This document shows positions 4,744-46,137 of a stretch of DNA of 58,909 bases, piece after piece; position 1 is the first letter of the stretch, and each line of letters begins with the position of its first letter. The notes under the pieces were generated by a model. That model was not told the origin of the DNA. It did no database searches and saw nothing but the letters and a program-made list of their open reading frames with translations. The DNA is from Fidelibacterota bacterium (lineage in GTDB: Bacteria; Fidelibacterota; Marinisomatia; Marinisomatales; TCS55), in assembly GCA_046861385.1 (NCBI GenBank), contig JBHHTW010000012.1, forward strand, positions 1 through 58,909, in the 5' to 3' direction. The position numbers and the translations under genes are program-made.

Positions 4744-5955
4744 ATGAAAGAAAAATACATTGTAGGCCCTAGAGAAGACAAACCCCGCTCTGATATACGC
4801 ATAACTTTTACACCCTCCAAGAAGTCCCTATCATTTGAACTTTCCAGTAAAGTAGATGTTTTATTTGGTAAATCAATTTTAGCTCAGGCAGAAAATGTAT
4901 GTAGAGATTTAGGCATCACTTCCGGGAAAATTTTACTGGAAGATTTTGGTGCATTACCATTTGTTATTTCCGCTCGCATGGAAGCAGTGATAAAAGCTGC
5001 CCACACGGAAATAACTACAGAATCCTTACCTGAAATGAAAAGTCACTGTCAAGGACAGTCCTCAAGAAATCGTTTTCGTCGCAGTCGTTTATATATTCCG
5101 GGAAATCAACCCAAGCTCATGCTGAATGCTGGTATTCATAAACCGGATGGGATCATTTTAGATTTGGAAGACGCAGTTGCTCCACCGGAAAAAGAGTCAA
5201 CCAGGCTTATAGTCAGGAATGCATTACGTACACTGGACTTTTTTGGAGCTGAACGCATGGTGCGTATTAATCAAAGTGAAATGGGATTGAAAGATCTTGA
5301 ATTTCTAGTCCCACATAATGTTCATTTGATTCTTGTCCCTAAAGTGGAAAGCGGTGCACAACTTGTTGCTGTGGATGAAAAAATTGCTGAAATCAGTAAA
5401 AAGTGTGGACGGACAGATCCGGTGTTTCTCATGCCCATTATTGAAAGTGGACGTGGTGTCTTGAAAGCGTTGGAAATAGCGGAAGCATCACCTAATAATG
5501 TAGCGCTTGCCATCGGATTAGAAGACTATACTGCAGACATGGGAACGAAACGTACCCAGGAAGGTCGGGAATCATTCTTTGCCAGAAGCATGGTTGTGAA
5601 TGCTGCCCGTGCGGCGGGATTACAGGCAATTGACTCCGTTTTCAGCGATCTTGGAGATGAAGAAGCTTTGCGGGAATCTGTCCGGGAGGCAAAGGCTTTA
5701 GGCTTTGACGGAAAGGGCTGTATCCATCCACGGCAGATTCAACCGGTCAATGAAGAATTTGCACCGTCTGAATCAGAAATTGAAAAAGCGAAAAGAGTTG
5801 TTTTGGCTTTTGACGAAGCCGAAGCTAAAGGGCTTGGTGTGGTATCGCTTGGTTCAAAAATGATTGATGCTCCAGTTGTTAAAAAAGCAATGCAAATAAT
5901 AGATATGGCAATATTATCAAAGCGACTGTCAAAAGATTGGAAGAAAAATGAGTAA
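4744..5955 (+). CDS. citE: Citrate lyase ACP-like (CitD) domain fused to citryl-CoA lyase (CitE)
   Basis: N-terminal ~90 aa with FG..I...DxGALxFVIxAR (CitD-like); then RRSRLYIPG, ILDLEDAV, GxEDY, GKGCIHPRQI, MIDAP. Confidence 0.85.
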   Translation: MKEKYIVGPREDKPRSDIRITFTPSKKSLSFELSSKVDVLFGKSILAQAENVCRDLGITSGKILLEDFGALPFVISARMEAVIKAAHTEITTESLPEMKSHCQGQSSRNRFRRSRLYIPGNQPKLMLNAGIHKPDGIILDLEDAVAPPEKESTRLIVRNALRTLDFFGAERMVRINQSEMGLKDLEFLVPHNVHLILVPKVESGAQLVAVDEKIAEISKKCGRTDPVFLMPIIESGRGVLKALEIAEASPNNVALAIGLEDYTADMGTKRTQEGRESFFARSMVVNAARAAGLQAIDSVFSDLGDEEALRESVREAKALGFDGKGCIHPRQIQPVNEEFAPSESEIEKAKRVVLAFDEAEAKGLGVVSLGSKMIDAPVVKKAMQIIDMAILSKRLSKDWKKNE

Positions 5956-7510
5956 GCCGAAAATGATTCGAAATTCAGTCGGACGGCTGGTACCTAATGT
6001 CATAAATAACAATCCTCAAGTTCCATTTAAAGGTGTTGGAAAATTTTCACCTTATGGAAAAATAGCTGCACCTCAAATTCGCAATTGCAGTGAATATCCA
6101 TTAGATGGAAATAAAGTGGTCGGTTCACTAAAAGAAGCATTAGAAAAAGCAGGACTGAAAAATGGAATGACCGTATCTAATCATCATCATTTTCGAAATG
6201 GCGATCTGGTGATGAACCAGGTGTTTGATATTGCATCAGAGATGGAAATTAAAGGATTGCGTTGGTTTCCCTCAGCCGCTTTTCCCTGTCATAAACCGGT
6301 GATAGATCATATCAAGAATGGAACAATCGATTGGATTGAAGGATCGTTAAACGGTCCATTGGGTGATTTTGCCTCACGTGGTGGAATGCGAGGTACAGGT
6401 GTTTTACGGAGTCATGGTGGTCGCTGGCAGGCAGTTCAGGATGGTGAGGTTCACATTGACATTGCGATCATTGCCGCACCAACAGCAGATCAATTTGGCA
6501 ACGCAACAGGAGATCGCGGGCCGTCGGCCTGTGGACTATTAGGCTTTGGTCTGGTGGATACGCTGTATGCGGATAAAGTAATTGTTGTAACCGATAATTT
6601 GGTTCCTTTTCCATGTGTGCCTTGGCAAATTCAAGGACAAAACGTGGACTTCGTCGTTGTGATGGATAAAGTAGGTGAACCGGAAAAAATTGTATCCGGA
6701 ACAACAAAACTTACCCGTTCACCAGACAGATTATTTATAGCAGAAATGACTGCAAAATTTGTTCAGGCAGCTGGAATTATTAAAGAAGGGTTCAGTTTCC
6801 AAGCAGGGGCAGGCGGTACAGCTTTGGCTTTTGCTATTTACCTGAAGGAAATGATGATAGACGCTGGAATAAAAGCAAGATTCGTGCGTGGCGGTTCCAC
6901 TAAATACTTAGTGGAAATGCTGGAAGCAGGCCTTACAGATTTTATACTCGATGGTCAGACATTCGATTTGGATGGAGTCAGATCAATGCGGGAGAATTAT
7001 GGACATGTAAATACATCACCATTTACCAGTTATAATTGGCATGGAAAAGGCAACTTTGCCAGCATGGTGGATGTGGTTGTTCTCGGCGCAACAGAAGTGG
7101 ATGTGAATTTTAATGCCAACGTTGTAACCCATTCCGATGGGCGCATGCTCCATGGAATCGGCGGATGGCAGAACTGTCTATTCAGTAAATGTACGATTCT
7201 TCCCATTCCAGCATTTCGCGACCGAATTCCAATTATCGTTGACAATGTTACTACATTGGTTGGTCCCGGTGAATTAATTGATGTCATAGTTACTGAGAGA
7301 GGAATAGCCATTAATCCATTACGGAAAGATCTCATTAAAGCAACGAAAAACAGCGATTTGCCAATTCGAAAAATTGAGGATATAAAAGCAGAAGTGGATG
7401 ATCTAATTGGAGGTCCGCCAACCAAACCTGAACTTACAGATGAAGTGATTAGTGTCGTTAAATGGGTAGATGGGACTATCATAGATAGTATTTATAAAAT
7501 TAAGGAATGA
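5948..7510 (+). CDS. citF: Citrate lyase alpha subunit / CoA-transferase
   Basis: GMTVSNHHHFRNGD, RSHGGR, FSFQAGAGG, ATEVDVNFNANV, VTERGIAINP; overlaps citE stop. Confidence 0.9.
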   Translation: MSKPKMIRNSVGRLVPNVINNNPQVPFKGVGKFSPYGKIAAPQIRNCSEYPLDGNKVVGSLKEALEKAGLKNGMTVSNHHHFRNGDLVMNQVFDIASEMEIKGLRWFPSAAFPCHKPVIDHIKNGTIDWIEGSLNGPLGDFASRGGMRGTGVLRSHGGRWQAVQDGEVHIDIAIIAAPTADQFGNATGDRGPSACGLLGFGLVDTLYADKVIVVTDNLVPFPCVPWQIQGQNVDFVVVMDKVGEPEKIVSGTTKLTRSPDRLFIAEMTAKFVQAAGIIKEGFSFQAGAGGTALAFAIYLKEMMIDAGIKARFVRGGSTKYLVEMLEAGLTDFILDGQTFDLDGVRSMRENYGHVNTSPFTSYNWHGKGNFASMVDVVVLGATEVDVNFNANVVTHSDGRMLHGIGGWQNCLFSKCTILPIPAFRDRIPIIVDNVTTLVGPGELIDVIVTERGIAINPLRKDLIKATKNSDLPIRKIEDIKAEVDDLIGGPPTKPELTDEVISVVKWVDGTIIDSIYKIKE

Positions 7511-8052
7511 TGATGATTAATAAAGAAAAAATATTGGAAATATGGCCTGAAATTGATTGGATCAAAGATGGTGAATTGAAAAATAAAGTCACTAACGCAT
7601 GGATCTGGGCAATCGAAAATAGTATATTATCAGCCGATGATTTGATGGAGATTCCTTTTTCATTACTTATAAAAGATTGTTCGGTCTCGTTCATGAATCA
7701 TAAGCGCACGTGTGTTCAACTTGCTGTGGATATTGCCAATAGAATGCAGGAAAATTTTGGTGATGAAATTCAAATTGATATGGATATCCTCATAGCCGGC
7801 GCCATATTAATTGACGTGGGAAAACTAATGGAATATGAAATTGTGGATGGCAAACTCACTACCAGTGACTACGGTAGTAAAGTACGCCATCCATTCAGCG
7901 GGGTTGCCATTGCGGCCCGATTTGATTTGCCGGCAGATGTTCAGCATATTATCGGCACTCATTCAAAAGAAGGAGATTTGGGCAAGCGAACGGTGGAATC
8001 AATCATTGTCCATCATGCCGATTTTGTAAGCTTTGAACCGTTTAAGGCATAA
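7507..8052 (+). CDS. HD/HDIG-like phosphohydrolase-fold protein
   Basis: H...GAILIDVGK (HD position reads ID), RHPFSG, HSKEG, HHADF; ATGA-coupled to citF. Confidence 0.7.
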   Translation: MMMINKEKILEIWPEIDWIKDGELKNKVTNAWIWAIENSILSADDLMEIPFSLLIKDCSVSFMNHKRTCVQLAVDIANRMQENFGDEIQIDMDILIAGAILIDVGKLMEYEIVDGKLTTSDYGSKVRHPFSGVAIAARFDLPADVQHIIGTHSKEGDLGKRTVESIIVHHADFVSFEPFKA

Positions 8053-8055
8053 AAT

Positions 8056-10035
8056 ATGGCGCAAAATTTAACCGAAAAAATAGTTCAAAAATGCGCAGTC
8101 GGTTTGCCCGAAGGAGCTGTTGTTCATTCGGGTGATTACATTTCTATCCAGCCGGATCATATCCTTACCCATGACAATACAGCGCCGGTGGCAGAAAAAT
8201 TTAAAACTATTGGCGCGGTTAAAATGGCCAGGCCTCGCCAGCCCATGTTTGCACTAGATCATAATGTGCAGGATACATCAGAAGCAAATTTAAAAAAATA
8301 TACTGGCATTGAAGTGTTTGCAAAAAAGATGGGTGTGGATTTTTATCCGGCAGGCAGGGGCATAGGTCATCAGATAATGTGTGAAGAAGGGTATGCTTTT
8401 CCCGGGACTATGGCGGTTGCTTCGGACAGCCATGCCAATATGTATGGCGGTTTGGGGTGTCTGGGAACTCCGGTTGTCCGAACAGATGCAGCAGCAATTT
8501 GGGCTACAGGCAGAACTTGGTGGCAAGTACCGCCTATTGCTAATGTAGAATTTATAGGAAAGCTCTCTGCAGGTGCGACCGGGAAGGATGTAATAATAAC
8601 ACTGGCAGGATTATTTAATAAAGATGAAGTATTGAATCACGCCTTAGAATTTTCTGGGGAAGGAATAAAATCTTTGTCTGTTAATGACCGGTTAACTATC
8701 GCCAACATGACAACTGAATGGGGAGCGCTTGTTGGATTGTTTCCCATTGATTCTGTCACAATTCAGTGGCTGAACAACCGAGCCGATTTCGTTTCAGCAA
8801 GGGGGTTAGAAGGTGTCCCTTCCGATAAAGATAGTATTAACGGAATTCATCCAAGAATGAATCATGACCGGATTCAGCAGTTGGAAAATGAACATCTTAC
8901 TGCAGATGAAACTGCATTTTATTCAAAAGAAATCACTTTGGACCTCGCTACTGTTACTCCCCATGTCGCTGGCCCGGATAATGTAAAAACCATAGCTTCA
9001 ATAGCGGAAATGACACGTAAAGACATCACTATTAACAAAGCTTATCTGGTGAGTTGCACCAATAGTCGGGCGGATGATTTAGCCCAGGCTGCAGATGCTG
9101 TTCGTGGGAGGAAGGTAGCTGAACACGTTGAATTTTATATTGCCGCAGCTTCCAGTGAAGTTCAAGCAGTTAGTGAAAATAACGGCGACTGGCAAACATT
9201 GTTAGATGCAGGAGCTCGTCCTTTACCTCCCGGGTGCGGGATGTGTATCGGATTGGGAGTTGGATTACTCCAAGAAAATGAAATTGGAATTTCTGCCACA
9301 AATCGAAATTTCAAAGGACGCATGGGCGATCCAACTGCGAAAGCTTATTTGGCATCTCCTGCAGTAGTGGCGTCGTCGGCAATGGCCGGAAAAATTGTCG
9401 GTCCAAAATTATTTTCAAATGTCAAACCAACAAGCAGTATCGTCATAAACAATCAACCGTCTTCAAAGAAAAATTCTGTTTCATTATTAGAAGGGTTTCC
9501 AGGAAAACTATCCGGAGAATTGATATTTTGTCATCAGGATAATTTGAATACTGATGGAATCTATCCCGGTAAATATACCTATGTGGATGGATTAACTCCT
9601 GAACAGATGGCTGCAGTTGTGATGGAAAATTATGATCCTGAATTTGAAAAAATTGTTGAAGAAAATAACATTTTAGTCAGTGGGTTTAATTTCGGTTCGG
9701 GAAGTTCAAGAGAACAGGCTGCCACTGCGTTGAAATACAGAGGTATTCAATTGGTAATCGCCGGCTCATTCAGCCAAACCTATAAGCGGAATGCTTTGAA
9801 CAATGGTTTTTTAGTCATTGAGGCTCCGAAACTGGTGAATGATTTAAAGGAAAAATTTGGCGTGAATAAATTGACCGTAAAAACAGGGTTGAAAGCAACT
9901 ATTAATTTTATTTCCTCTGTACTGATTGTCAATGAAAAAGAATATTCCATTTCACCCGTTGGTGTTGCGGCACAGGAGTTGATATTGACCGGTGGTTTGG
10001 AAAATTGGGTGAAAGAAAGAATCCAGAACGAATAG
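8056..10035 (+). CDS. lysF: Single-chain homoaconitase (LysF/Lys4-like aconitase family)
   Basis: THDNT, ASDSHANMYGG, LVSCTNSR, GCGMCIG, SATNRNFKGRMG, DNLNTDGIYPGKYTY, GSSREQA. Confidence 0.8.
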   Translation: MAQNLTEKIVQKCAVGLPEGAVVHSGDYISIQPDHILTHDNTAPVAEKFKTIGAVKMARPRQPMFALDHNVQDTSEANLKKYTGIEVFAKKMGVDFYPAGRGIGHQIMCEEGYAFPGTMAVASDSHANMYGGLGCLGTPVVRTDAAAIWATGRTWWQVPPIANVEFIGKLSAGATGKDVIITLAGLFNKDEVLNHALEFSGEGIKSLSVNDRLTIANMTTEWGALVGLFPIDSVTIQWLNNRADFVSARGLEGVPSDKDSINGIHPRMNHDRIQQLENEHLTADETAFYSKEITLDLATVTPHVAGPDNVKTIASIAEMTRKDITINKAYLVSCTNSRADDLAQAADAVRGRKVAEHVEFYIAAASSEVQAVSENNGDWQTLLDAGARPLPPGCGMCIGLGVGLLQENEIGISATNRNFKGRMGDPTAKAYLASPAVVASSAMAGKIVGPKLFSNVKPTSSIVINNQPSSKKNSVSLLEGFPGKLSGELIFCHQDNLNTDGIYPGKYTYVDGLTPEQMAAVVMENYDPEFEKIVEENNILVSGFNFGSGSSREQAATALKYRGIQLVIAGSFSQTYKRNALNNGFLVIEAPKLVNDLKEKFGVNKLTVKTGLKATINFISSVLIVNEKEYSISPVGVAAQELILTGGLENWVKERIQNE

Positions 10036-10121
10036 AATATTGAAAAAATAGGGTAATTTTTACAGCAATTAAATAAATTTAGAAAGTGCTTTGTTATTAT
10101 ACGCATTATAATATATAATTA

Positions 10122-10166
10122 TGCGAATATAATCGCAATATAAAATAATAAATTGCGAATACAATC
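10122..10166. promoter_or_regulatory. Tandem palindromic boxes upstream of the second ATPase gene
   Basis: TGCGAATATAATCGCA at 10122-10137; second copy TGCGAATACAATC at 10154-10166. Confidence 0.5.
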
Positions 10167-10175
10167 AATGAAGTA

Positions 10176-11303
10176 ATGATAAATAGACTTTTAAAAAATC
10201 AAATAATTCAATCTTTTGGCAAGAAAAAAGTCGCGATTTTGTTAGGTCCTAGACAAGTTGGCAAAACAATACTTGCAAAAGCGGTTTCCGATCAATCGGG
10301 AATGAAGACTTTGTGGTTAAATGGCGATGAGCCGGATATTCGGGAATTGCTAACAAATGCAACATCTACCCGGTTAAAAAATATTATTGGTAAACACGAA
10401 TTGGTTGTAATAGACGAAGCTCAGAGAATTACAAATATTGGACTCACGTTAAAATTAATAATTGATGAAATACCATCTGTCCAAATATTTGCTACTGGAT
10501 CATCTTCATTTGAGTTAGCCAACAAAATTAATGAGCCCCTTACCGGTAGAAAAAATACATTCTACTTGTATACGATTTCGTTTCAGGAATTATATGATTA
10601 TTCCAATTTGTTAGAAGAACAAAGAAATCTTGAACATCGGATGATCTATGGTTCTTATCCGGACGTAATAAATAATTCTGGAGATGAGATCAATGTGCTG
10701 GCACAGCTATCAGACAGTTATCTTTATAAAGATATATTTACATTTGATAAATTGAAAAAGCCTGATATTTTAGAAAAATTGCTGCAAGCCATCGCATTGC
10801 AATTAGGGCAGCAGGTAAGTTACAATGAATTAGGAAAACTCATTGGAGCTGACAATCAAACTGTTGAAAAGTATATTTATCTTTTAGAAAAAACATATGT
10901 CATCTTTCGGTTAGGTTCCTTTAGTCGGAGTTTGAGAAATGAATTAAAAAAATCCAGAAAAATATATTTCTTCGATAATGGCATTCGTAATGCTATCATT
11001 AAAAATTATCGCCCTTTGGCATTGAGAACTGATACTGGTGCGTTATGGGAGAATTATTTATTGAGTGAAAGAGTTAAAACCAATCATTATTCAAGACGGT
11101 GGATGAACAAATACTTCTGGCGTACGCAAGCTCAACAGGAAATTGATTATATCGAAGAAAGAGATGGAAATCTTTATGCGTATAAATTCAAATGGAATCC
11201 AGCAAAAAATATTCGCTTTCCAGCTACATTTTCAAAAGCGTATCCGGAAGCAAAACTTCAGGTAATCTCACGAGATAATTATTCAGAGTGGATTCAAGGA
11301 TAA
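10176..11303 (+). CDS. AAA_14 ATPase with C-terminal DUF4143-like domain
   Basis: GPRQVGKT, IDEAQ, TGSSS, LTGR, KIYFFDNGIRN, LWENY, EIDY. Confidence 0.85.
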   Translation: MINRLLKNQIIQSFGKKKVAILLGPRQVGKTILAKAVSDQSGMKTLWLNGDEPDIRELLTNATSTRLKNIIGKHELVVIDEAQRITNIGLTLKLIIDEIPSVQIFATGSSSFELANKINEPLTGRKNTFYLYTISFQELYDYSNLLEEQRNLEHRMIYGSYPDVINNSGDEINVLAQLSDSYLYKDIFTFDKLKKPDILEKLLQAIALQLGQQVSYNELGKLIGADNQTVEKYIYLLEKTYVIFRLGSFSRSLRNELKKSRKIYFFDNGIRNAIIKNYRPLALRTDTGALWENYLLSERVKTNHYSRRWMNKYFWRTQAQQEIDYIEERDGNLYAYKFKWNPAKNIRFPATFSKAYPEAKLQVISRDNYSEWIQG

Positions 11304-11342
11304 ATTCATAAAAAATATTCGAAAACAAAAAAAGGATTAGCG

Positions 11343-12539
11343 ATGACGAAAAGAACAATTGTCAAAATGCCTGGTGACGGCATAGGTAGAGTAGTGTTGG
11401 AAGAAACAATTCGTGTACTGGATGCTGTCGGATTCGAAGCGAATTATGTTGAAGGTGATATCGGTTGGGAATTTTGGTGTACAGAAGGAAATCCACTCCC
11501 AAAACGAACGATTGATTTGCTTACAGAACATAAAATCGGTCTGTTTGGTGCCATCACATCCAAACCAAAAGATGATGCCTTTGAGGGACTGAGTCAGGAA
11601 TTAAAGGAAAAAGGATTGGTATACTCCAGTCCGATAGTTGGATTGCGTCAGCATTTTGGATTAGACATTTGTCTACGCCCCTGCCGAACCTACAAAGGGA
11701 ATCCGTTGAACTTTATTCGAAGAGGAAAAGGGGATACAATTGAAGAGCCGGAAGTGGATGTGGCGATTTTCCGTCAAAATACAGAAGGATTATACGGCGG
11801 TGTTGAATGGAGCGATCCGCCGGATCAGGTATATGATGCGCTGATGACTCATGCGAAGTTCCAAAAAAACTTCGGAGACGCACCAAAAGAAGAAATTTCC
11901 GTTTCAACGAGAATCTTTACCAAAAACGCAACAGAGAGAATTTTGCGAGCAGCTTTTGACCATGCCAAAAAGTATAAATATAAATCCGTTACTGTTTGTG
12001 AAAAGCCAAATGTAATCCGTGAAACTTCCGGTATGATGTACAAAATGGCTCAGCAGATTCAAAAAGCAGGTTATCCTGATATTGAACTATGGAATACAAA
12101 TATCGATGCCCAAATGATGTGGCTGACCAAGAATCCTGAAAATTATGGTGTCATCGTCGCAGGGAACATGTTTGGAGATATTGTCTCCGACGGTTTTGCC
12201 GGTCTCATCGGCGGACTTGGCTTTGCCTGTAGCGCACAATATAATCCTGAAACCGGCGTGGGTGTTTTTGAACCAACACATGGCAGTGCTCCAAAATATG
12301 CTGATTACCCAATTTCAATTGTTAATCCGATTGCTATGGTAGAATCTGCCTGTATGATGTTGGACTATATTGACGAGCAGGAAATAGCCAAAAAGATCAG
12401 AAAAGCAGTAGCAGTAATAGTGGCTGAAGGTAACGTCAGAACATACGATATGGCAAAAATGTCTGGACGAGCTGACGTAATAGAAAATGGTGCTGCATCA
12501 ACATCCCAAATGACAGATGCTATTATTTCAAAACTATAG
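11343..12539 (+). CDS. Isocitrate/isopropylmalate dehydrogenase family, homoisocitrate dehydrogenase-like
   Basis: PGDGIG, YSSPIVGLR, RQNTEGLY, KPNV, NMFGDIVSD, FEPTHGSAP. Confidence 0.85.
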   Translation: MTKRTIVKMPGDGIGRVVLEETIRVLDAVGFEANYVEGDIGWEFWCTEGNPLPKRTIDLLTEHKIGLFGAITSKPKDDAFEGLSQELKEKGLVYSSPIVGLRQHFGLDICLRPCRTYKGNPLNFIRRGKGDTIEEPEVDVAIFRQNTEGLYGGVEWSDPPDQVYDALMTHAKFQKNFGDAPKEEISVSTRIFTKNATERILRAAFDHAKKYKYKSVTVCEKPNVIRETSGMMYKMAQQIQKAGYPDIELWNTNIDAQMMWLTKNPENYGVIVAGNMFGDIVSDGFAGLIGGLGFACSAQYNPETGVGVFEPTHGSAPKYADYPISIVNPIAMVESACMMLDYIDEQEIAKKIRKAVAVIVAEGNVRTYDMAKMSGRADVIENGAASTSQMTDAIISKL

Positions 12540-12547
12540 GAACGAAA

Positions 12548-13990
12548 ATGGAACAATCAATCGCAAGACAAATTGCTGAATTCGCCGTCAACCTGAAATA
12601 CGAAGATTTACCCGATGAAGTGATTCACGAAGTTAAACGATATCTCTATGATTCTATTGGATGTGCTTATGGCAGTATGAAAACGAATGATGTGAACACT
12701 ATTCTCGAAATATACAAAGAAATGGGTGGCACGGATGAATCCACTGTGATCGGGTTTGGAGACAAAATGCCAGCAGTAAATACTGCGCTTATAAATTCGC
12801 TGATGATCAGGGCGTTGGATTTCAATGATATTTACTGGAAAGATGATCCCAGTCATCCCAGCGACATTATTCCAGCGGCTTTAAGTACTGCAGAGAAAAT
12901 GAATTCGTCCATGAAAGATGTCATTGTTGCAATCGTTTTGGCTTACGAATTTGAACAGCGATTATGTTTATTTGCAAAACCAGGTGTCCGTGAACGGAAA
13001 TGGCACCATGCCACCCTGACTCAATTTGTTTCACCCATTGTAGCTGGAAAAATTCTTGGTTTATCAGTTGACCAAATGGTAAATGCAATTGGAATAAATG
13101 GCTGCCATAACCATACGATTGGTTGCCCGACGGCGGGTGTCCTGACAATGATGAAAAATACTGTTGACCCTATGGCAGTCCAAAGCGGTGTGTTTGCAGC
13201 ACTTATGGCAAAAAAAGGATATTCTGGAACGGAAAAAGTGTTTGAAGGCAAGGAAGGATTTATGGATGCATTCATCGGTTGGGATGCAAAAGAAGAAATA
13301 ATGAATCCCAGAGATATGGAAGGGCGAGACGGTATCTCATCTTGGGGATGGGATGTAGAGGCGCTCGTAGGAAATTTGGGAAAGGATTACAAAATTCTTG
13401 AGTGTGGTATGAAAGCATTTCCAACAGAAGCTCTAACCCATACTCATATTTCATGTGCGCTGAAAGCTATGATCAATAATGATCTTGACTATACTGACAT
13501 TAAAGAAGTTAAGGTAACTGCCTTCGCTCAAGCATATGATATTCTATTTGATCCGGCCAAATATCGTCCTGAATCCAGGGAAACAGCTGACCATTCACTG
13601 CCCTATTGTATGGCAGTGGCCATCGTAGATAAAAAAATTACTACAGAATCATTTTCCCATGAAATGTTGAATGATCCGAGAGTATTTGAAGTCATTGACA
13701 AGATAAAAGGAGAACCTTCATTGGAATTTGAAAAAATGTTTCCGGCAAAACAGCCATCAAAAGTTGTAATCACCACAAAAGATGGGCAAGAATATTCAGA
13801 ATACCTTGAATATCCCAAGGGTGATCCCCGGGAACCAATGACTATGGAAGACTTAGAGAATAAATTTAATTCTCTTGCCGGAAAGTCATTTGATCAAAAT
13901 AGTATGAAATTACTTAAGGGACTTATATTTGACTGTGAAAATATTACCGCACGGGAGTTTATGTCTCAACTTATAGTTAAAAAAGGTTAG
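12548..13990 (+). CDS. MmgE/PrpD family dehydratase
   Basis: RALDFND, HPSDIIPA, ETADHSLPY, YPKGDP. Confidence 0.9.
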   Translation: MEQSIARQIAEFAVNLKYEDLPDEVIHEVKRYLYDSIGCAYGSMKTNDVNTILEIYKEMGGTDESTVIGFGDKMPAVNTALINSLMIRALDFNDIYWKDDPSHPSDIIPAALSTAEKMNSSMKDVIVAIVLAYEFEQRLCLFAKPGVRERKWHHATLTQFVSPIVAGKILGLSVDQMVNAIGINGCHNHTIGCPTAGVLTMMKNTVDPMAVQSGVFAALMAKKGYSGTEKVFEGKEGFMDAFIGWDAKEEIMNPRDMEGRDGISSWGWDVEALVGNLGKDYKILECGMKAFPTEALTHTHISCALKAMINNDLDYTDIKEVKVTAFAQAYDILFDPAKYRPESRETADHSLPYCMAVAIVDKKITTESFSHEMLNDPRVFEVIDKIKGEPSLEFEKMFPAKQPSKVVITTKDGQEYSEYLEYPKGDPREPMTMEDLENKFNSLAGKSFDQNSMKLLKGLIFDCENITAREFMSQLIVKKG

Positions 13991-13991
13991 T

Positions 13992-15161
13992 ATGAAAAAT
14001 TTTGGACCCGACTTTTACAATATAACCGATTTATTGACTGAAGAAGAATTACTCATTCAAAAAACAGCCAATGAATTTGTTCAATCAGAATTCATTCCGG
14101 TGATTAATGAACATTACGAGCATGCAACATTTCCAATGGAATTAGTCCCCAAATTAGGTGAATTAGGATTTATGGGCTCATCGCTCCCTGTTGAATCAGG
14201 CGGGGCAGGGGTTAGTAATGTTGCCTATGGTTTGATTCTTCATGAATTGGAACGGGGCGATTCCGGTTTGCGTTCTTTTGCCAGTGTGCAAGGTTCTTTA
14301 GTGATGTATCCTATTCACTCTTATGGATCGGATGAGCAAAAAGCAAAATGGCTTCCCGGATTAGGAAATGGATCAAAAATCGGATGTTTTGGGTTGACAG
14401 AACCCAATTTTGGTTCTAATCCCGGAGGAATGGCGACAAGGTGCAAAAAAGACGGGGATGATTGGATTATTAACGGCAACAAGATGTGGATTACCAGCGG
14501 TTCTATCGCGGATGTTGCTGTTATCTGGGCCCGGGATGAAGAGGGAATTGTCCGTGGATTTTTGTTGGAAAAAGGAATGGACGGATTTACATCCAGCGAC
14601 ATTCATGGTAAATTAAGTCTTCGAGCTTCAGTGACTTCTGAACTGTCTATGGTCAACGTTCGAGTCCCCGATTCTGCCAGATTACCAAATATTGAAGGAC
14701 TGAAGGGGCCATTGAGTTGTTTGACCCAAGCCCGTTATGGTATCGCCTGGGGGATGGTCGGTGCAGCGACTGATTGTTACAACACTGCTTTAGATTATTC
14801 AAAAGAACGGAAACAATTCTTAAAACCAATCGGCGGATATCAACTTATACAAGCAAGCCTGGCGGAAATGCTAACTCAAATTACGGAAGCACAGCTTTTG
14901 GTTTATCGTTTAGGAAGACTGAAAGATGAGGGGAAAATGACCTTTCAACAAGTGTCCATGGCGAAACGAAACAACTGCGCTATGGCACGTGATGTGGCAA
15001 GAATATCCCGGGAAATGCTGGGAGCGAACGGAATTACCGAAGACTATTCACCCATTCGTCACATGGCTAATATTGAATCGGTGTATACGTACGAAGGGAC
15101 CCATGAAATGCATACTTTAATTTTGGGACAGGCTATTACCGGGATGGCAGCGTTTGATTAG
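13992..15161 (+). CDS. Acyl-CoA dehydrogenase, glutaryl-CoA dehydrogenase-like
   Basis: ELERGDSGLRS, SVQGSLVMYPI, FGLTEPNFGSNP, ARYGIAWG, YTYEGTHEMH. Confidence 0.8.
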   Translation: MKNFGPDFYNITDLLTEEELLIQKTANEFVQSEFIPVINEHYEHATFPMELVPKLGELGFMGSSLPVESGGAGVSNVAYGLILHELERGDSGLRSFASVQGSLVMYPIHSYGSDEQKAKWLPGLGNGSKIGCFGLTEPNFGSNPGGMATRCKKDGDDWIINGNKMWITSGSIADVAVIWARDEEGIVRGFLLEKGMDGFTSSDIHGKLSLRASVTSELSMVNVRVPDSARLPNIEGLKGPLSCLTQARYGIAWGMVGAATDCYNTALDYSKERKQFLKPIGGYQLIQASLAEMLTQITEAQLLVYRLGRLKDEGKMTFQQVSMAKRNNCAMARDVARISREMLGANGITEDYSPIRHMANIESVYTYEGTHEMHTLILGQAITGMAAFD

Positions 15162-15196: not shown

Positions 15197-16378
15197 TCAA
15201 TCATCTTGATTTTGATTATTCTTTAACCGGATCAGTTCACTCATTGGATGGAAATTTTTCCAGGAAAACCAATATTCATCGGAAATTTTTATTGGTTGGA
15301 GGTTTTTCTTAACAGGTCCTCGAATATAGTGTCCTCTTAAATCCCAGATTGTTCCTGTATTTTTGTCCACGATACATTGTTTTTTATTAAGAGAAAATTC
15401 AAAATGGTGATGACCGATTGTATGTCTAAATCCATTCACTGTATCATTTGTGTGGATTAACGAAAATCCCAACTCTTCATTTTTAATAATACTTAATTTT
15501 GTGATCTCCTTTTTAATGTAAACAACCTGATATTGAATTGTGGAATCTATGATTCCAATGACACGAGTTTTGGAAGGAAAGGTTGTATCTTTTGATGAAA
15601 GTCCGGGGGTTAATTCTGTAGACATGACCTTTTTCCATACCCCTGGCATAGGAAGACTGAATGGTCTGAAATCGTTATCAGTCACCACAGCAATCAAAGG
15701 TAACGGATTTAACCTTTTTATATCTTTCCATGATAATATTTGAAAGGGAATCATCTTCAGCTGGTAGGGATGAAGTTTCCCGATAATAGATTGGAAGGTA
15801 GCCTGTTGAAAAAATGTTTTAGTCTTTTTATCAGCAACAATCATATTGGCATTTTTAAAGGATCCCACAAATAACGGTCCCATGTCTGTCACGTCAAAGG
15901 GAATAATACTCCGGCACATGGCACAGTATGTTAACGATATAATCTTTTTCCCAAATCGATCATTTATAATGTGATGATGAACCACATAATCCAACGGATA
16001 CGCTTTGATGATTCCATCCACTTCAATAACAGCCAATTGACAGTTTTCCTGGATGGGAAGCGAATTGACTTCATGGGTCATTTCTGGAAAATCAACTGCT
16101 TTAAACCAGTTTTCCTGATGTAGTTTATAAACAAGAATGACTGATAGCGATACTAGTAATAAGGATAAAATCGTCCCGACGGTTAACGGAGCAGATATTT
16201 GTTGAAAATGATTAAGAAAAACTGTTCCAAAAGATCCAAAACAAAAGATCCACGCCAATGGTTTTCGAATATGATAATGATAATAGAGCCATGTTGCAGG
16301 GATTTTTTCTATTAATGTAAATATTGCAAAAAACCCATTAATGAGCGATAAAAATGCAATGAAATAATGATAATTCAT
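15197..16378 (-). CDS. DUF3179-family protein with N-terminal TM helices
   Basis: KAYPL...HHIIND...TYCAMCRS (CxxC), C-terminal YWFSWKNFHP. Confidence 0.7.
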   Translation of the reverse strand: MNYHYFIAFLSLINGFFAIFTLIEKIPATWLYYHYHIRKPLAWIFCFGSFGTVFLNHFQQISAPLTVGTILSLLLVSLSVILVYKLHQENWFKAVDFPEMTHEVNSLPIQENCQLAVIEVDGIIKAYPLDYVVHHHIINDRFGKKIISLTYCAMCRSIIPFDVTDMGPLFVGSFKNANMIVADKKTKTFFQQATFQSIIGKLHPYQLKMIPFQILSWKDIKRLNPLPLIAVVTDNDFRPFSLPMPGVWKKVMSTELTPGLSSKDTTFPSKTRVIGIIDSTIQYQVVYIKKEITKLSIIKNEELGFSLIHTNDTVNGFRHTIGHHHFEFSLNKKQCIVDKNTGTIWDLRGHYIRGPVKKNLQPIKISDEYWFSWKNFHPMSELIRLKNNQNQDD

Positions 16379-44814: not shown

Positions 44815-46080
44815 CTACCAGTTATTATTTTCTAACAGCCATTGCCACGTAGGCATTATTGTAATTTTTTTATTATCATGGTTGAATTCTTCCTTAGCGG
44901 CATGCTGTGTTAAAATGAGTCCTTTTTCTACTTTCAAATCTTTCATACTTGTCAGAAGGGATTTTATCTCTCTGGCACGAGTTTCTGTATTTGAAATATC
45001 GAAGGAAACTTGAATCAACCTTTCTTGTTCAGGTAAAAAGAAATCTGTTTCTGTGCGTCGTTTATAATACATTAGTGTTTCTCGATTATTTCGATTTAAT
45101 TCATTGAAAACCAGGTTTTCTAACAATTTTCCGAAGTCTTCCAATAAAAATAAATTCAGTAATCCAACATCAATAAAATAGTATTTCTTCTTCATTTCAC
45201 GGTCAGAGAACTTATTGATAATATTCTGTATTGGTATCACAAGGTATGATTCTTTTAAATAAGTCAAATAATCAATAATGGTATTTGTACTCACTTTAAT
45301 CCCAATGGATTGTAAAAGATTTTTCATCCGGTTAAAGGATGTTTCATCCTCTACACTTTCAGCAAGCTTCTTTACTAATAATTCCAGCGCTTTCTTATTT
45401 TTCAAATTATACCGAACAAGGATATCCCCATAAAATACCTTTTTGAACAGATTATTTAAATAGTCTCGCTTATCTGTATATTTAATTAATTCAGGGAATC
45501 CCCCATATTTCAAATAGTCATTAAAATACCGTTTTATTAAAGGAGCATTTGAGGAATATTGAGAATGTGAGTTAATAACAATTCCGTGAAACATTAAGTA
45601 TTCAACGAATGATAAAGGAAAAATTTCTTTGATGAAGAATCTGCCACCCAATGTTGCTGCAATTTCCTGACTTAACATATTAGTATTGCTTCCGGTTACA
45701 TAAACTTGATATCCTTCATCTACCAGTCGTCGGCAATACGTTTGCCAATTATCCACGTTTTGAATTTCATCAAAATAAATGACAGGTTTATTATCAAATA
45801 ATTCTTTGTATGCATCAAGAATTAGCACCAAGTCCTTTGATGTTATTTCTAATAATCGTTCATCTTCAAAGTTTATATATAATACCCGTTGGCTTTGTTC
45901 ATTTCCGAAAGTTTTTTGAATGAGCTGGTAGAGAAAGTAGGTTTTCCCCGCCCTGCGGGGACCTACAATTACATAACTTGCATTTAAATCAATTGGAATA
46001 TCTCTCTCAATTAATTCGACAGATTGAATTCTTTCCTGATTGCTTACAATTAATTGTTTAAATATATCGATCATTATCAT
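44815..46080 (-). CDS. AAA_14 ATPase with DUF4143-like domain
   Basis: GPRRAGKT, INFEDER, FDEIQN, TGSN, GGFPE, YFIDVG, ENLVF; start placed just downstream of the palindrome. Confidence 0.85.
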   Translation of the reverse strand: MIMIDIFKQLIVSNQERIQSVELIERDIPIDLNASYVIVGPRRAGKTYFLYQLIQKTFGNEQSQRVLYINFEDERLLEITSKDLVLILDAYKELFDNKPVIYFDEIQNVDNWQTYCRRLVDEGYQVYVTGSNTNMLSQEIAATLGGRFFIKEIFPLSFVEYLMFHGIVINSHSQYSSNAPLIKRYFNDYLKYGGFPELIKYTDKRDYLNNLFKKVFYGDILVRYNLKNKKALELLVKKLAESVEDETSFNRMKNLLQSIGIKVSTNTIIDYLTYLKESYLVIPIQNIINKFSDREMKKKYYFIDVGLLNLFLLEDFGKLLENLVFNELNRNNRETLMYYKRRTETDFFLPEQERLIQVSFDISNTETRAREIKSLLTSMKDLKVEKGLILTQHAAKEEFNHDNKKITIMPTWQWLLENNNW

Positions 46081-46137
46081 ATATTGTTCTGTATACAGAA
46101 CAATATACCCCATAATTTATTTTGTATACAATATAAA
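46081..46137. promoter_or_regulatory. Perfect 26-bp palindrome plus degenerate second copy upstream of the third ATPase
   Basis: atattgttctgtatacagaacaatat at 46081-46106; ttgtatacaa core at 46122-46131. Confidence 0.6.

Follow-up and report, generated by a model that had tools for sequence, protein, structure and literature searches.

Which acid passes through an operon that joins citrate-lyase-type genes to a homoaconitase, a beta-decarboxylating dehydrogenase, a PrpD-family enzyme and a glutaryl-CoA dehydrogenase, and in which direction does it travel? We addressed this question in the window, a stretch of 58,909 nucleotides from a Fidelibacterota bacterium, by examining the layout of the operon, the conservation of its genes and the family relationships of the encoded enzymes.

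Layout and identity of the operon genes

The initial annotation described co-oriented genes with overlaps or short gaps, broken by one inserted ATPase, and the ORF coordinates of the region 4744-15161 bear this out:

4744..5955, + strand: CitD (acyl-carrier domain)-CitE fusion; PF06857 at residues 16-85, PF03328 at residues 113-329
5948..7510, + strand: CitF-like alpha subunit (acetyl-ACP:tricarboxylate transferase); PF04223 459 bits, TIGR01584 510 bits
7507..8052, + strand: HD-fold/HDIG protein, core member; TIGR00277 28.8 bits
8056..10035, + strand: fused large and small subunit homoaconitase, Lys4 type; TIGR00139 863 bits
10176..11303, + strand: DUF4143/AAA_14 ATPase, insert; PF13635 and PF13173
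11343..12539, + strand: Iso_dh-family beta-decarboxylating dehydrogenase; PF00180 253 bits
12548..13990, + strand: MmgE/PrpD-family enzyme (PrpD-like); PF03972 and PF19305
13992..15161, + strand: glutaryl-CoA dehydrogenase (GcdH); PDB matches 2eba and 1siq

The CitDE and CitF genes overlap by 8 bases and the CitF and HD genes by 4, while gaps of 3, 8 and 1 bases separate the HD gene from the homoaconitase gene, the Iso_dh gene from the PrpD-like gene and the latter from GcdH. The sole long gaps within the operon border the ATPase gene (140 bases on the homoaconitase side, 39 on the Iso_dh side). The GC fraction is 0.35 in the 2 kb around this gene, and just 3 of the first 80 related loci examined gave a match to the ATPase, with 29-56% identity and elsewhere in the locus. 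It is an insert that stands outside the pathway. Profile matches agreed at the family level with the gene identities assigned earlier, and the gene families of the cluster include, as had been noted, no homocitrate, citrate or methylcitrate synthase.

Conservation of a six-gene module

The core of the operon is a module of six: CitD-CitE, CitF, the HD protein, the homoaconitase, the Iso_dh enzyme and the PrpD-like enzyme. With altered gene order the module was found again in Marinimicrobia, Ignavibacteria, Zixibacteria and Calditrichota, and among the 67 related loci in which the PrpD-like gene has 8 kb or more of flanking sequence on each side, 39 contain the complete set, an arrangement far beyond what chance would give. 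This synteny check of related loci found the metabolic genes and the HD protein kept as a unit across phyla, in keeping with their initial grouping as one operon. Within the window's own class the PrpD-like and CitF genes have identical genome lists (32 of 83 genomes), which argues that the module acts as a unit. The HD protein occurs in 31 of the 32 module-bearing genomes of this class versus 0 of the 51 module-free ones, and its gene immediately precedes HACN/HacA in 83 of the 87 loci having both. No Pfam match was obtained for this protein; its AF2 model has a pLDDT of 88, and Foldseek ranks the YhaM HD domain highest (E 6e-5). In a phylum sample of 201 genomes the HD profile was detected in 108 and a CitF orthologue in 113. 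CitDEF is present in 75 of 144 related loci (the CitD-CitE fusion in 72) and an SCS-like plus citryl-CoA lyase set in 4, and the PrpD-like proteins are 70-84% identical between phyla. Transporters of the di/tricarboxylate or CstA type lie within the operon in some lineages, with CstA-family members in 18 Ignavibacteria loci. Our literature search found no paper that describes the module, which is a widely conserved, hitherto undescribed gene set.

GcdH, originally counted among the operon's pathway genes, did not hold up as a core member. Of the 33 genomes of family f24, 29 carry the PrpD-like gene and 0 carry GcdH; in a further family of 13 genomes the respective counts are 0 and 13. The module is retained without GcdH in family f26 as well. 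By hand count, 16 of 46 sampled genomes with both genes have the GcdH orthologue no more than 5 kb from the PrpD-like gene, 14 of these 16 belonging to the window's own order, and GcdH occurs in 4 of the 144 related loci. It is no commoner with the module in the window's class (24 of 32 genomes) than without it (45 of 51). Its matches to solved glutaryl-CoA dehydrogenases are strong (2eba, 481 bits; human 1siq, 397 bits), and GcdH is a real glutaryl-CoA dehydrogenase but a lineage-specific addition to the operon.

Proposed roles of the module enzymes

The homoaconitase exceeds the TIGR00139 cut-off of 530 bits by more than 300 bits, its f24 orthologue scores 759 bits, and NCBI names relatives of the fused hydro-lyase 'homoaconitase'. 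In families f26 and f20 the same module has a split HacA/HacB-type pair in its place, which includes a LeuD/HacB-type small subunit and passes the homoaconitate-hydratase model TIGR01343 (541 and 536 bits, cut-off 386). The PrpD-like enzyme scores 60-91 bits on PrpD equivalogs with cut-offs of 458-950; its solved relatives are cis-aconitate decarboxylase, 2-methylcitrate dehydratase and IDS epimerase, the nearest being cis-aconitate decarboxylases (103 bits, versus 50 bits for PrpD). According to PMC3556520, fungal homoaconitases interconvert homoaconitate and homoisocitrate only, and both fungal and Thermus enzymes catalyze only the second half of the isomerization, so that two enzymes would be expected to isomerize homocitrate. 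The earlier suggestion that the PrpD-like and Lys4-type enzymes form a split isomerase is consistent with this. We propose that the PrpD-like enzyme is a homocitrate dehydratase, interconverting homocitrate and cis-homoaconitate, and that the homoaconitase interconverts cis-homoaconitate and homoisocitrate.

AksF2 is the top NCBIfam match of module dehydrogenases throughout (245 bits for the window's enzyme, 336 and 338 bits for others), with all models under their cut-offs for the enzyme in the window; the solved structure nearest to an f24 orthologue (genome G021) is Thermus homoisocitrate dehydrogenase (3asj, 226.6 bits). All 59 orthologues carry the motif Y-x-S-P-I-V-x-[LM]-R, in which Ile98 stands at the position of Asn115 in the E. 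coli IDH, and Val99 at that of Arg85 in Thermus HICDH. Equivalents of Asn115 and Arg85 are missing in 59 of 59; the enzyme lacks the isocitrate determinants. An R85V exchange reportedly abolishes activity on isocitrate with activity on homoisocitrate retained. We propose that the enzyme is a homoisocitrate dehydrogenase acting as a reductive carboxylase of 2-oxoadipate.

CitF passes the citrate-lyase alpha equivalog (TIGR01584 cut-off 501 bits), and CitD-CitE reaches 285 bits on TIGR01588, under the cut-off of 443. Ser16 of CitD-CitE, which by the Klebsiella enzyme we take to be the prosthetic-group site, is invariant in 57 aligned orthologues. Neither CitG nor CitX was found in any of 5 genomes, and CitC gave no convincing match there. 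Family f20, of the same phylum, has in place of CitDEF a citryl-CoA synthetase/lyase-like set consisting of SCS-like beta and alpha subunits and a Ccl-like gene; the citryl-CoA-lyase-named gene scores 281 bits on NF004869 (cut-off 212), a lyase subunit bears the ATP-citrate-lyase citrate-binding domain, and the first gene of the operon encodes a 2-oxoacid dehydrogenase E1. CitDE is proposed to cleave a (homo)citryl thioester.

Several known systems resemble the module in part. With the upper alpha-aminoadipate pathway (fungal Lys20/21, aconitase, Lys4, Lys12; Thermus HCS, LysT/U, HICDH) it shares a Lys4-type homoaconitase, a same-family dehydrogenase closest to HICDH-type enzymes and, going by PMC3556520, an isomerization divided between two enzymes. 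However, it has a citrate-lyase/citryl-CoA-lyase-type enzyme where homocitrate synthase would be, a PrpD-family enzyme rather than aconitase as the proposed catalyst of the first isomerization half, and an obligatory HD protein; it lacks the downstream lysine genes LysW and Lys2, and its proposed direction would be the reverse of the fungal pathway's first half. CitDEF of Klebsiella and lactic acid bacteria, together with citramalate lyase, corresponds in the alpha, beta and gamma parts, the CitF equivalog and the carrier serine, whereas in the module gamma and beta are fused, CitE falls far under its cut-off, CitG, CitX and a convincing CitC are missing, and the lyase sits among isomerase and dehydrogenase genes, not citrate-fermentation genes, and can be exchanged for a Ccs/Ccl-like set. 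The reverse TCA arm of Hydrogenobacter (CcsAB, Ccl, aconitase, IDH) likewise carboxylates, isomerizes and cleaves to an acetyl unit and a 2-oxoacid, and the f20 lyase genes resemble its own; it differs in that the module has a homoaconitase/IPMI-clade hydro-lyase plus a PrpD-family enzyme, a dehydrogenase without isocitrate-binding residues and, in most genomes tested, a normal oxidative TCA set beside it. The 2-methylcitrate cycle also splits the isomerization between a PrpD-family and an aconitase-superfamily enzyme, yet the PrpD-like protein is remote from PrpD equivalogs and nearer cis-aconitate decarboxylases, and the module terminates in a dehydrogenase instead of methylisocitrate lyase. 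Methanogen coenzyme B elongation (AksA, AksD/E, AksF) supplies top matches (AksF2, HacA/HacB), but the module scores under the equivalog cut-offs, has no AksA-type synthase, resides in a bacterial host and contains a lyase.

Substrate and direction of the pathway

We tentatively read the module, at a little short of even chances, as a C7 hydroxy-tricarboxylic acid pathway that would convert 2-oxoadipate and CO2 via homocitrate to 2-oxoglutarate and acetate, the C7 substrates being suggested by family likeness. The Iso_dh enzyme would carboxylate 2-oxoadipate with NAD(P)H to homoisocitrate, the homoaconitase would dehydrate this to cis-homoaconitate, and the PrpD-like enzyme would hydrate the latter to homocitrate, which CitF, CitE and CitD would load on the carrier thiol and cleave to 2-oxoglutarate, with acetyl-ACP remade and acetate released. 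The homoaconitase, HacA-type and AksF2/HICDH matches point to homo-type enzymes. 2-Oxoadipate is a lysine-breakdown acid, and ties to its metabolism come from the operon GcdH, the f20 E1 gene and a hand tally of related, non-independent genomes in which a CitF orthologue accompanies 62 of 77 with a saccharopine-dehydrogenase orthologue versus 51 of 124 without. Of the two directions offered initially, the carboxylating, cleaving one is favored, since the exchange of CitDEF for a citryl-CoA synthetase/lyase-like set in f20 points to cleavage. Both lyase types are citrate-cleaving, an HMGL-type synthase is missing in 3 of 5 module genomes, and transporters occur in the operon, all of which argue for chain shortening. 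A search of the window's own genome likewise recovered no homocitrate synthase; the two HMGL-like genes of this genome encode LeuA and citramalate synthase and belong to a leu operon located on a different contig. Counting against the C7 reading are the dehydrogenase scores below every curated cut-off, the CitF score above that of citrate-lyase alpha, nearest solved relatives of the PrpD-like enzyme that are decarboxylases and not dehydratases, and the distribution of GcdH in the window's class. Lysine-ketoglutarate reductase and saccharopine dehydrogenase also count against it, giving no tblastn match in the window's own genome (related-genome queries, E <= 1e-5) and occurring in 0 of the 144 related loci, as does f24, where CitF is present in 28 of 33 genomes, saccharopine dehydrogenase in 0 of 33 and GcdH is absent. 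Reductive carboxylation moreover requires CO2 at high levels and nicotinamide cofactors in a reduced state.

We consider it unlikely that the module works on citrate, as a reductive TCA segment from 2-oxoglutarate and CO2 via isocitrate, cis-aconitate and citrate to oxaloacetate and acetate, in which the PrpD-like and Lys4-like enzymes would jointly replace aconitase. Such a segment could take part in the fermentation of glutamate or in a reverse TCA cycle that is independent of ATP. The CitF equivalog and the citryl-CoA-lyase-named gene of f20 agree with such a role, and in the genome paper of Ignavibacterium album (PMC3362086) the CitEF genes IALB_1146/1147 are annotated as ATP-independent citrate lyase and a reverse-TCA role is raised. 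Family f24 fits it also: among the genomes examined, citrate synthase was found in 0 of 5 and monomeric IDH in 0 of 4, no AcnA/B-sized aconitase was seen, the Iso_dh members are LeuB and the module copy only, and the PrpD-like gene comes after sdhA-sdhB in 8 of 8, an adjacency that fits further use of 2-oxoglutarate just as well. Against citrate, both module variants have a hydro-lyase of the homoaconitase/IPMI clade and never one of the aconitase clade, the dehydrogenase lacks Asn115 and the isocitrate-admitting Arg, and CitE is far from the citE cut-off. Citrate synthase was present in 5 of 5 module genomes tested, genome G004 carries genes for AcnA-like and monomeric IDH enzymes, and the window's own genome encodes citrate synthase as well as a mitochondrial-type aconitase (TIGR01340, 1129 bits) and NADP-IDH (TIGR00183, 660 bits), so that a citrate role would be redundant here.

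Quite unlikely, in our view, are non-C7 alkyl- or carboxyalkyl-malates, such as citramalate/3-methylmalate (2-oxobutyrate to pyruvate and acetate), 2-methylcitrate-type acids or longer 2-oxodicarboxylates losing one carbon per turn. The Ile-Val pair of the dehydrogenase is hydrophobic as in IPMDH-type enzymes, the methanogen AksF2 family accepts several chain lengths, CitDEF has a relative in ACP-type citramalate lyase, characterized relatives of the operon's CstA-family transporters carry pyruvate or peptides, and the split hydro-lyase of f20 and f26 scores nearly equally on IPMI_arch and hacA_fam. Set against these are the fused hydro-lyase, which passes the homoaconitase and not the IPMI equivalogs, the tri- and tetracarboxylates used by characterized PrpD-family enzymes, and the citrate-binding domain of the f20 lyase subunit. 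Forward elongation is the least probable reading, with acetyl-ACP (acetyl-CoA in f20) and 2-oxoglutarate giving homocitrate and then 2-oxoadipate, destined for lysine/2-aminoadipate or, through glutaryl-CoA and GcdH, for crotonyl-CoA. It would suit the position of GcdH directly after the PrpD-like gene here and near it elsewhere, and the lack of asd and dapABD stated for I. album in PMC3362086. DapA was likewise not found in the window's own genome, and true DapA in 0 of 83 genomes of its class. However, LysW occurs in only 5 of 201 genomes, 2 of them with the module, none of 61 genomes from the window's order has a Lys2-type reductase, and f20 and f26 have DapA together with module genes. DapA and the module are jointly absent from many genomes, no DapA-module anticorrelation was found, and f24 and f26 retain the module although they have no GcdH. 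Condensation by citrate lyase from free acetate is near equilibrium at standard state and strongly disfavored at cellular concentrations. The other direction first offered, a synthase-independent route to 2-oxoadipate, is accordingly unsupported as a supply for lysine synthesis.

Returning to chain shortening of 2-oxoadipate, GcdH would have joined the operon in the window's order of Marinimicrobia. 2-Oxoadipate could there divide between an oxidative branch, through glutaryl-CoA to crotonyl-CoA, and the CO2- and NAD(P)H-consuming branch formed by the module, and if it does, redox would be balanced.

Gene content of the cluster

The cluster spans 4744-15161 and holds eight open reading frames, all co-oriented; the first three overlap (by 8 and 4 bases) and the later ones are spaced by 3, 140, 39, 8 and 1 bases, the long gaps (140 and 39 bases) being only those either side of the fifth gene. 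ORF calls, Pfam, NCBIfam and solved structures bore out the gene set, shared orientation, overlaps or short gaps and inserted ATPase described in the initial annotation. We refer to the CitD-CitE fusion (CitDE), CitF, the HD protein, the homoaconitase, the Iso_dh-family dehydrogenase and the PrpD-like protein as the module.

Genes of the cluster at 4744-15161 (+), in order
Gene 1: CitD(ACP)-CitE fusion; citE model TIGR01588 285 bits, below the cut-off of 443
Gene 2: CitF; TIGR01584 510.3 bits, just over the cut-off of 501.45
Gene 3: HD/HDIG protein of 181 aa, without Pfam match
Gene 4: homoaconitase with large and small subunits fused; TIGR00139 863 bits, cut-off 530
Gene 5: 10176-11303 (+), DUF4143/AAA_14 ATPase
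Gene 6: Iso_dh-family dehydrogenase; top match AksF2 (methanogen homoisocitrate dehydrogenase), 245 bits, all models below cut-off
Gene 7: MmgE/PrpD-family protein; PrpD equivalogs only 60-91 bits, cut-offs 458-950
Gene 8: acyl-CoA dehydrogenase; glutaryl-CoA dehydrogenase (GcdH) by solved structures

The DUF4143 ATPase gene interrupts the operon, coming after the homoaconitase gene and before the dehydrogenase gene, and lies in an AT-rich stretch, with GCGAATA-like words repeated just upstream. It is one of varied selfish genes found in gaps between module genes. In Ignavibacteria (loci L054, L034, L067, L012 and others) such gaps are filled by small selfish genes, and those seen in module gaps encode 23S-rRNA-IVP four-helix-bundle proteins (PF05635; two ORF clusters, in 24 and 17 loci among the matches listed), PIN, YoeB/YefM and restriction-modification methylases. 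A second DUF4143/AAA_14 ATPase gene lies at 44815-46113 (-). Just downstream of the module a DUF3179 membrane protein is encoded at 15197-16378 (-), and one also stands just downstream of the variant module of family f20 of the same phylum (L117:14338-15402, +). Elsewhere in the window, the segment 18073-20274 (-) holds a gene for ACR3 arsenite efflux (TIGR00832, 393 bits) next to one for an ArsM/UbiE-like methyltransferase, and the segment 38467-42768 (+) holds the beta and alpha genes of electron-transfer flavoprotein and, after them, one for a CCG-domain Fe-S oxidoreductase. The latter three genes are likely an electron outlet for acyl-CoA dehydrogenases, GcdH included.

Conservation and distribution of the module

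We scanned species-representative genomes twice with PrpD-like queries. Among the matches listed, a PrpD-like relative was encoded in 584 of 599 stretches in the first scan and in 592 of 599 in the second; 156 loci were kept, giving 144 distinct ones, many on short contigs. Among the matches listed, 108 of these 144 loci hold a fused homoaconitase and 5 a split HacA, 91 the HD protein, 72 CitDE, 71 the module dehydrogenase and 69 CitF, with the complete set in 39 of the 67 loci having at least 8 kb either side. Gene order is CitDE-CitF-HD-HACN-IDH-PrpD in Marinimicrobia (HACN, homoaconitase; IDH, module dehydrogenase) and IDH-HD-HACN-PrpD-CitDE-CitF in Ignavibacteria and Melioribacter, and many Zixibacteria loci carry HD-HACN-PrpD alone. 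That the set is kept despite rearranged gene order argues for function. The module is real and conserved, and synteny upholds the supposition that it is conserved as a unit, the complete set being kept in changed orders across lineages. One Ignavibacterium sp. chromosome (L057, G001) has a module that looks decayed, with the dehydrogenase cut to a 107-aa frame, CitDE partial, no CitF found and no GcdH orthologue.

Roughly half of the phylum genomes sampled carry the module (of 201, 93 have the PrpD-like gene, 113 CitF and 108 the HD profile), and it also occurs in many Ignavibacteria, Zixibacteria and Calditrichota. The relatives of the window's genome are labelled Marinimicrobia, Neomarinimicrobiota or Fidelibacterota. 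Within the window's own class the PrpD-like gene and CitF are found in the identical 32 of 83 genomes (lists compared by hand), and the HD protein is found in 31 of these 32 and in none of the other 51. The module is patchy, with 4 of 19 genomes of the own family carrying it, as expected of an accessory pathway. Cultured carriers are Melioribacter roseus and Ignavibacterium album. The passages retrieved from the I. album genome paper name IALB_1146/1147 an ATP-independent citrate lyase and report asd and dapABD genes as missing (PMC3362086), while those retrieved from the M. roseus paper mention on this topic only a missing ATP-citrate lyase (PMC3534657). A search of the literature, supplements excluded, found no description of the module, which is apparently undescribed.

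The initial annotation had counted GcdH as part of the operon, and its identity and position stood: the protein scored 481 bits against 2eba, 431 against 3sf6 and 397 against human 1siq, all solved glutaryl-CoA dehydrogenases, with the next other structure at 263. Its membership of the core did not stand. Of the 33 genomes of family f24, 29 carry the PrpD-like gene and none GcdH; in family f3, all 13 genomes carry GcdH and none the PrpD-like gene. Within the own class, GcdH accompanies the module in 24 of 32 genomes and is present in 45 of the 51 that lack the module. GcdH, with orthologues in 105 of 201 phylum genomes, is thus distributed independently of the module. Where a genome has both GcdH and the PrpD-like gene (46 genomes), the two are no more than 5 kb apart in 16, of which 14 belong to the own order; among the matches listed, GcdH appears in 4 of the 144 module loci. 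GcdH is a lineage-specific addition and not a core member.

Predicted enzymes and their substrate

Compared with citrate lyase CitDEF (EC 4.1.3.6), the CitF equivalog model is passed here (510.3 versus 501.45 bits) and the CitE equivalog model is failed (285 versus 443). The carrier domain scores 40-45 bits with CitD models, below the cut-offs of 63-65, and 51.6 bits with PF06857, above the cut-off of 25. Its Ser16, invariant in 57 orthologues, presumably corresponds to Ser14 of Klebsiella CitD, the prosthetic-group site. The holo-enzyme genes citG and citX of the known lyase were not found with the module (PF01874 and PF03802, 0 of 5 genomes each, the window's genome included), and CitC (PF08218) gave only partial matches in 3 of the 5, scoring 27-34 bits and lying in ORFs of 159-207 aa; the top match in the window's genome is a partial one of 34 bits. 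In family f20 CitDEF is replaced by three genes, for succinyl-CoA-synthetase-like beta and alpha subunits, the beta subunit having the citrate-binding domain of ATP-citrate lyase, and for a citryl-CoA lyase (NF004869, 281 bits, cut-off 212). Upstream of these genes stands a PDH-type E1 alpha-beta fusion, and downstream come the HD protein, split HacA/HacB, dehydrogenase and PrpD-like genes. Judged by their sequences, both lyase systems found with the module are of citrate-cleaving kinds.

Both variants have a hydro-lyase of homoaconitase type: the fused form scored 863 and 759 bits with TIGR00139, and the split form passed TIGR01343. According to passages retrieved from PMC3556520, Lys4-type enzymes need a separate dehydratase. 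The PrpD-like protein would be such an enzyme, which favours the C7 series as substrate. It differs from 2-methylcitrate dehydratase PrpD in failing the equivalog models (60-91 bits against cut-offs of 458-950), and among solved structures it matches cis-aconitate decarboxylase at 103 bits and PrpD at 31-50 bits. Among the matches listed, 87 loci have both the hydro-lyase gene and the HD gene, and in 83 of them the HD gene immediately precedes the other. The HD gene is retained in the f20 variant, which is without CitD, so its protein is not tied to the carrier domain. Foldseek with a predicted model found only generic HD phosphohydrolase folds, the ESM Atlas only clusters named 'HD domain protein', and in the window's protein the usual HD doublet is Ile-Asp. 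A 180-aa ORF of f24 considered as its counterpart is unrelated to it.

The top family matches of the dehydrogenase are always of homoisocitrate dehydrogenase (HICDH) type, although the window's copy, at 245 bits with AksF2, is below cut-off, and the nearest solved structure to an orthologue is that of Thermus HICDH. All 59 orthologues carry the signature Y-x-S-P-I-V-x-[LM]-R, whose Ile aligns with Asn115 of E. coli IDH and whose Val aligns with Arg85 of Thermus HICDH. The R85V change described by Miyazaki et al. in 2003 reportedly abolishes isocitrate use and keeps homoisocitrate use. The Lys12 likeness proposed in the initial annotation was searched for with a 21-residue motif query, which found no Iso_dh chain, and over the motif segment E. 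coli IDH was a better match than S. pombe HICDH. Taken together, the hydro-lyase type, dehydrogenase matches, signature and separate dehydratase favour the C7 series as the candidate substrate; some other substrate series is improbable.

Direction and role of the proposed pathway

The main competitor is a role at the level of citrate, which has some appeal in family f24, where every module gene is kept but dispersed. In the f24 genomes examined we found no citrate synthase (0 of 5), no monomeric IDH (0 of 4), no AcnA/B-sized aconitase and no further Iso_dh member, and in G021, G033, G009, G015 and G050 (two of them single-contig) the module dehydrogenase is the sole IDH seen. The PrpD-like gene follows sdhA-sdhB in all 8 f24 genomes examined, and the family has no saccharopine dehydrogenase and no GcdH. 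This pattern speaks against a C7 substrate and fits a citrate-level, TCA-linked role; it is also compatible with onward use of 2-oxoglutarate. Against citrate stand the hydro-lyase, which belongs to the homoaconitase/IPMI clade, and the Ile in place of Asn115 in the dehydrogenase. Relative to the reverse-TCA set, the module thus has neither a canonical aconitase nor an isocitrate-specific dehydrogenase, and of the citrate-cleaving systems of that cycle (Ccs/Ccl or ACL) a Ccl-like lyase accompanies it only in the f20 variant. The searches for citrate synthase, aconitase and IDH proposed in the initial annotation found all three outside the cluster in the window's genome (assembly of 2.43 Mb, 97.9% completeness, the window being its contig 78): one citrate synthase, an aconitase of the mitochondrial type (TIGR01340, 1129 bits) and an NADP-IDH (TIGR00183, 660 bits). 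We regard a citrate-level function as unlikely.

Compared with the upper alpha-aminoadipate pathway, homoaconitase is present (863 against a cut-off of 530) and homocitrate synthase was not found. Its absence from the cluster, pointed out in the initial annotation, extends to the whole genome, in which the two HMGL-like genes, both in the leu operon, score as LeuA (768 bits) and as citramalate synthase (710 bits). Of the 5 module genomes searched, 3 lack any HMGL-type synthase. The steps from aminoadipate to lysine (LysW or Lys2/Lys9/Lys1) were likewise not found. Neither LysW, another proposed search, nor DapA was found in the window's genome. LysW occurs in 5 of 201 phylum genomes, only 2 of them with the module, and a Lys2-type aminoadipate reductase (TIGR03443) was found in none of the order's 61 genomes. 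True DapA (over cut-off) is present in 33 of 201 and coexists with module genes in f20 and f26, and both DapA and the module are missing from many phylum genomes. On these synthase, LysW, Lys2 and DapA results we reject lysine biosynthesis as the main role and find no support for a synthase-independent route into lysine.

Links to 2-oxoadipate metabolism, namely GcdH in the own order, E1 in f20 and co-occurrence with saccharopine dehydrogenase (SDH), are suggestive and not strict. CitF occurs in 62 of the 77 genomes with an SDH orthologue versus 51 of the 124 without, related genomes not being independent. At L091 (G004:C7:25026-28367), overlapping AlaDh_PNT-type and Sacchrp_dh-type genes form a lysine-ketoglutarate reductase/SDH pair; an orthologue of the second gene is found in 77 of 201 phylum genomes and not in the window's genome, where tblastn with the pair of a related genome gave no match. 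The window's genome encodes two PF03435 proteins, whose Sacchrp_dh matches are weak and which carry no NCBIfam name. No saccharopine-pathway genes stood beside the module in the 144 loci, among the matches listed, and a neighbourhood link was rejected.

Regarding direction, condensation from free acetate would be unfavourable at cellular concentrations, and some module operons include a DASS-type or CstA transporter gene. Together with lyases that appear to be of cleaving type, these points lead us to place the lyase at the end of a route that shortens the chain. Chain elongation, the forward direction, has both the lyase types and the thermodynamics against it and is improbable. In nine Ignavibacteria loci among the matches listed, an acetyl-CoA synthetase gene stands just past CitF on the opposite strand (for example L049:14442-16331, -), which would fit acetate as the lyase product. 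We tentatively favour the view that the module is a reversed upper aminoadipate pathway, in which 2-oxoadipate and CO2 would be taken toward 2-oxoglutarate and acetate released last by the lyase.

A broader reading, possible though doubtful, is that of a widespread thioester-sparing 'reverse aminoadipate' route, with its own enzyme novelties, that puts one CO2 onto 2-oxoadipate and takes acetate off to give 2-oxoglutarate, perhaps used iteratively on longer 2-oxodicarboxylates. If so, the new enzymes would include a PrpD-family homocitrate dehydratase, the long-missing type, and a homocitrate-specific complex of citrate-lyase type needing neither CitG nor CitX to prime its carrier, and the HD-fold protein would be an obligatory partner of homoaconitase, for example an isomerase or a cluster- or metal-related helper. 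Database labels of citrate fermentation, lysine synthesis and the methylcitrate cycle would need correcting. The phylum is abundant in sea and sediment, and with M. roseus and I. album in culture the hypothesis is directly testable. If true, this would be a new central-metabolic route for lysine-derived carbon, by which anaerobes would gain its oxygen-independent, redox-consuming digestion.
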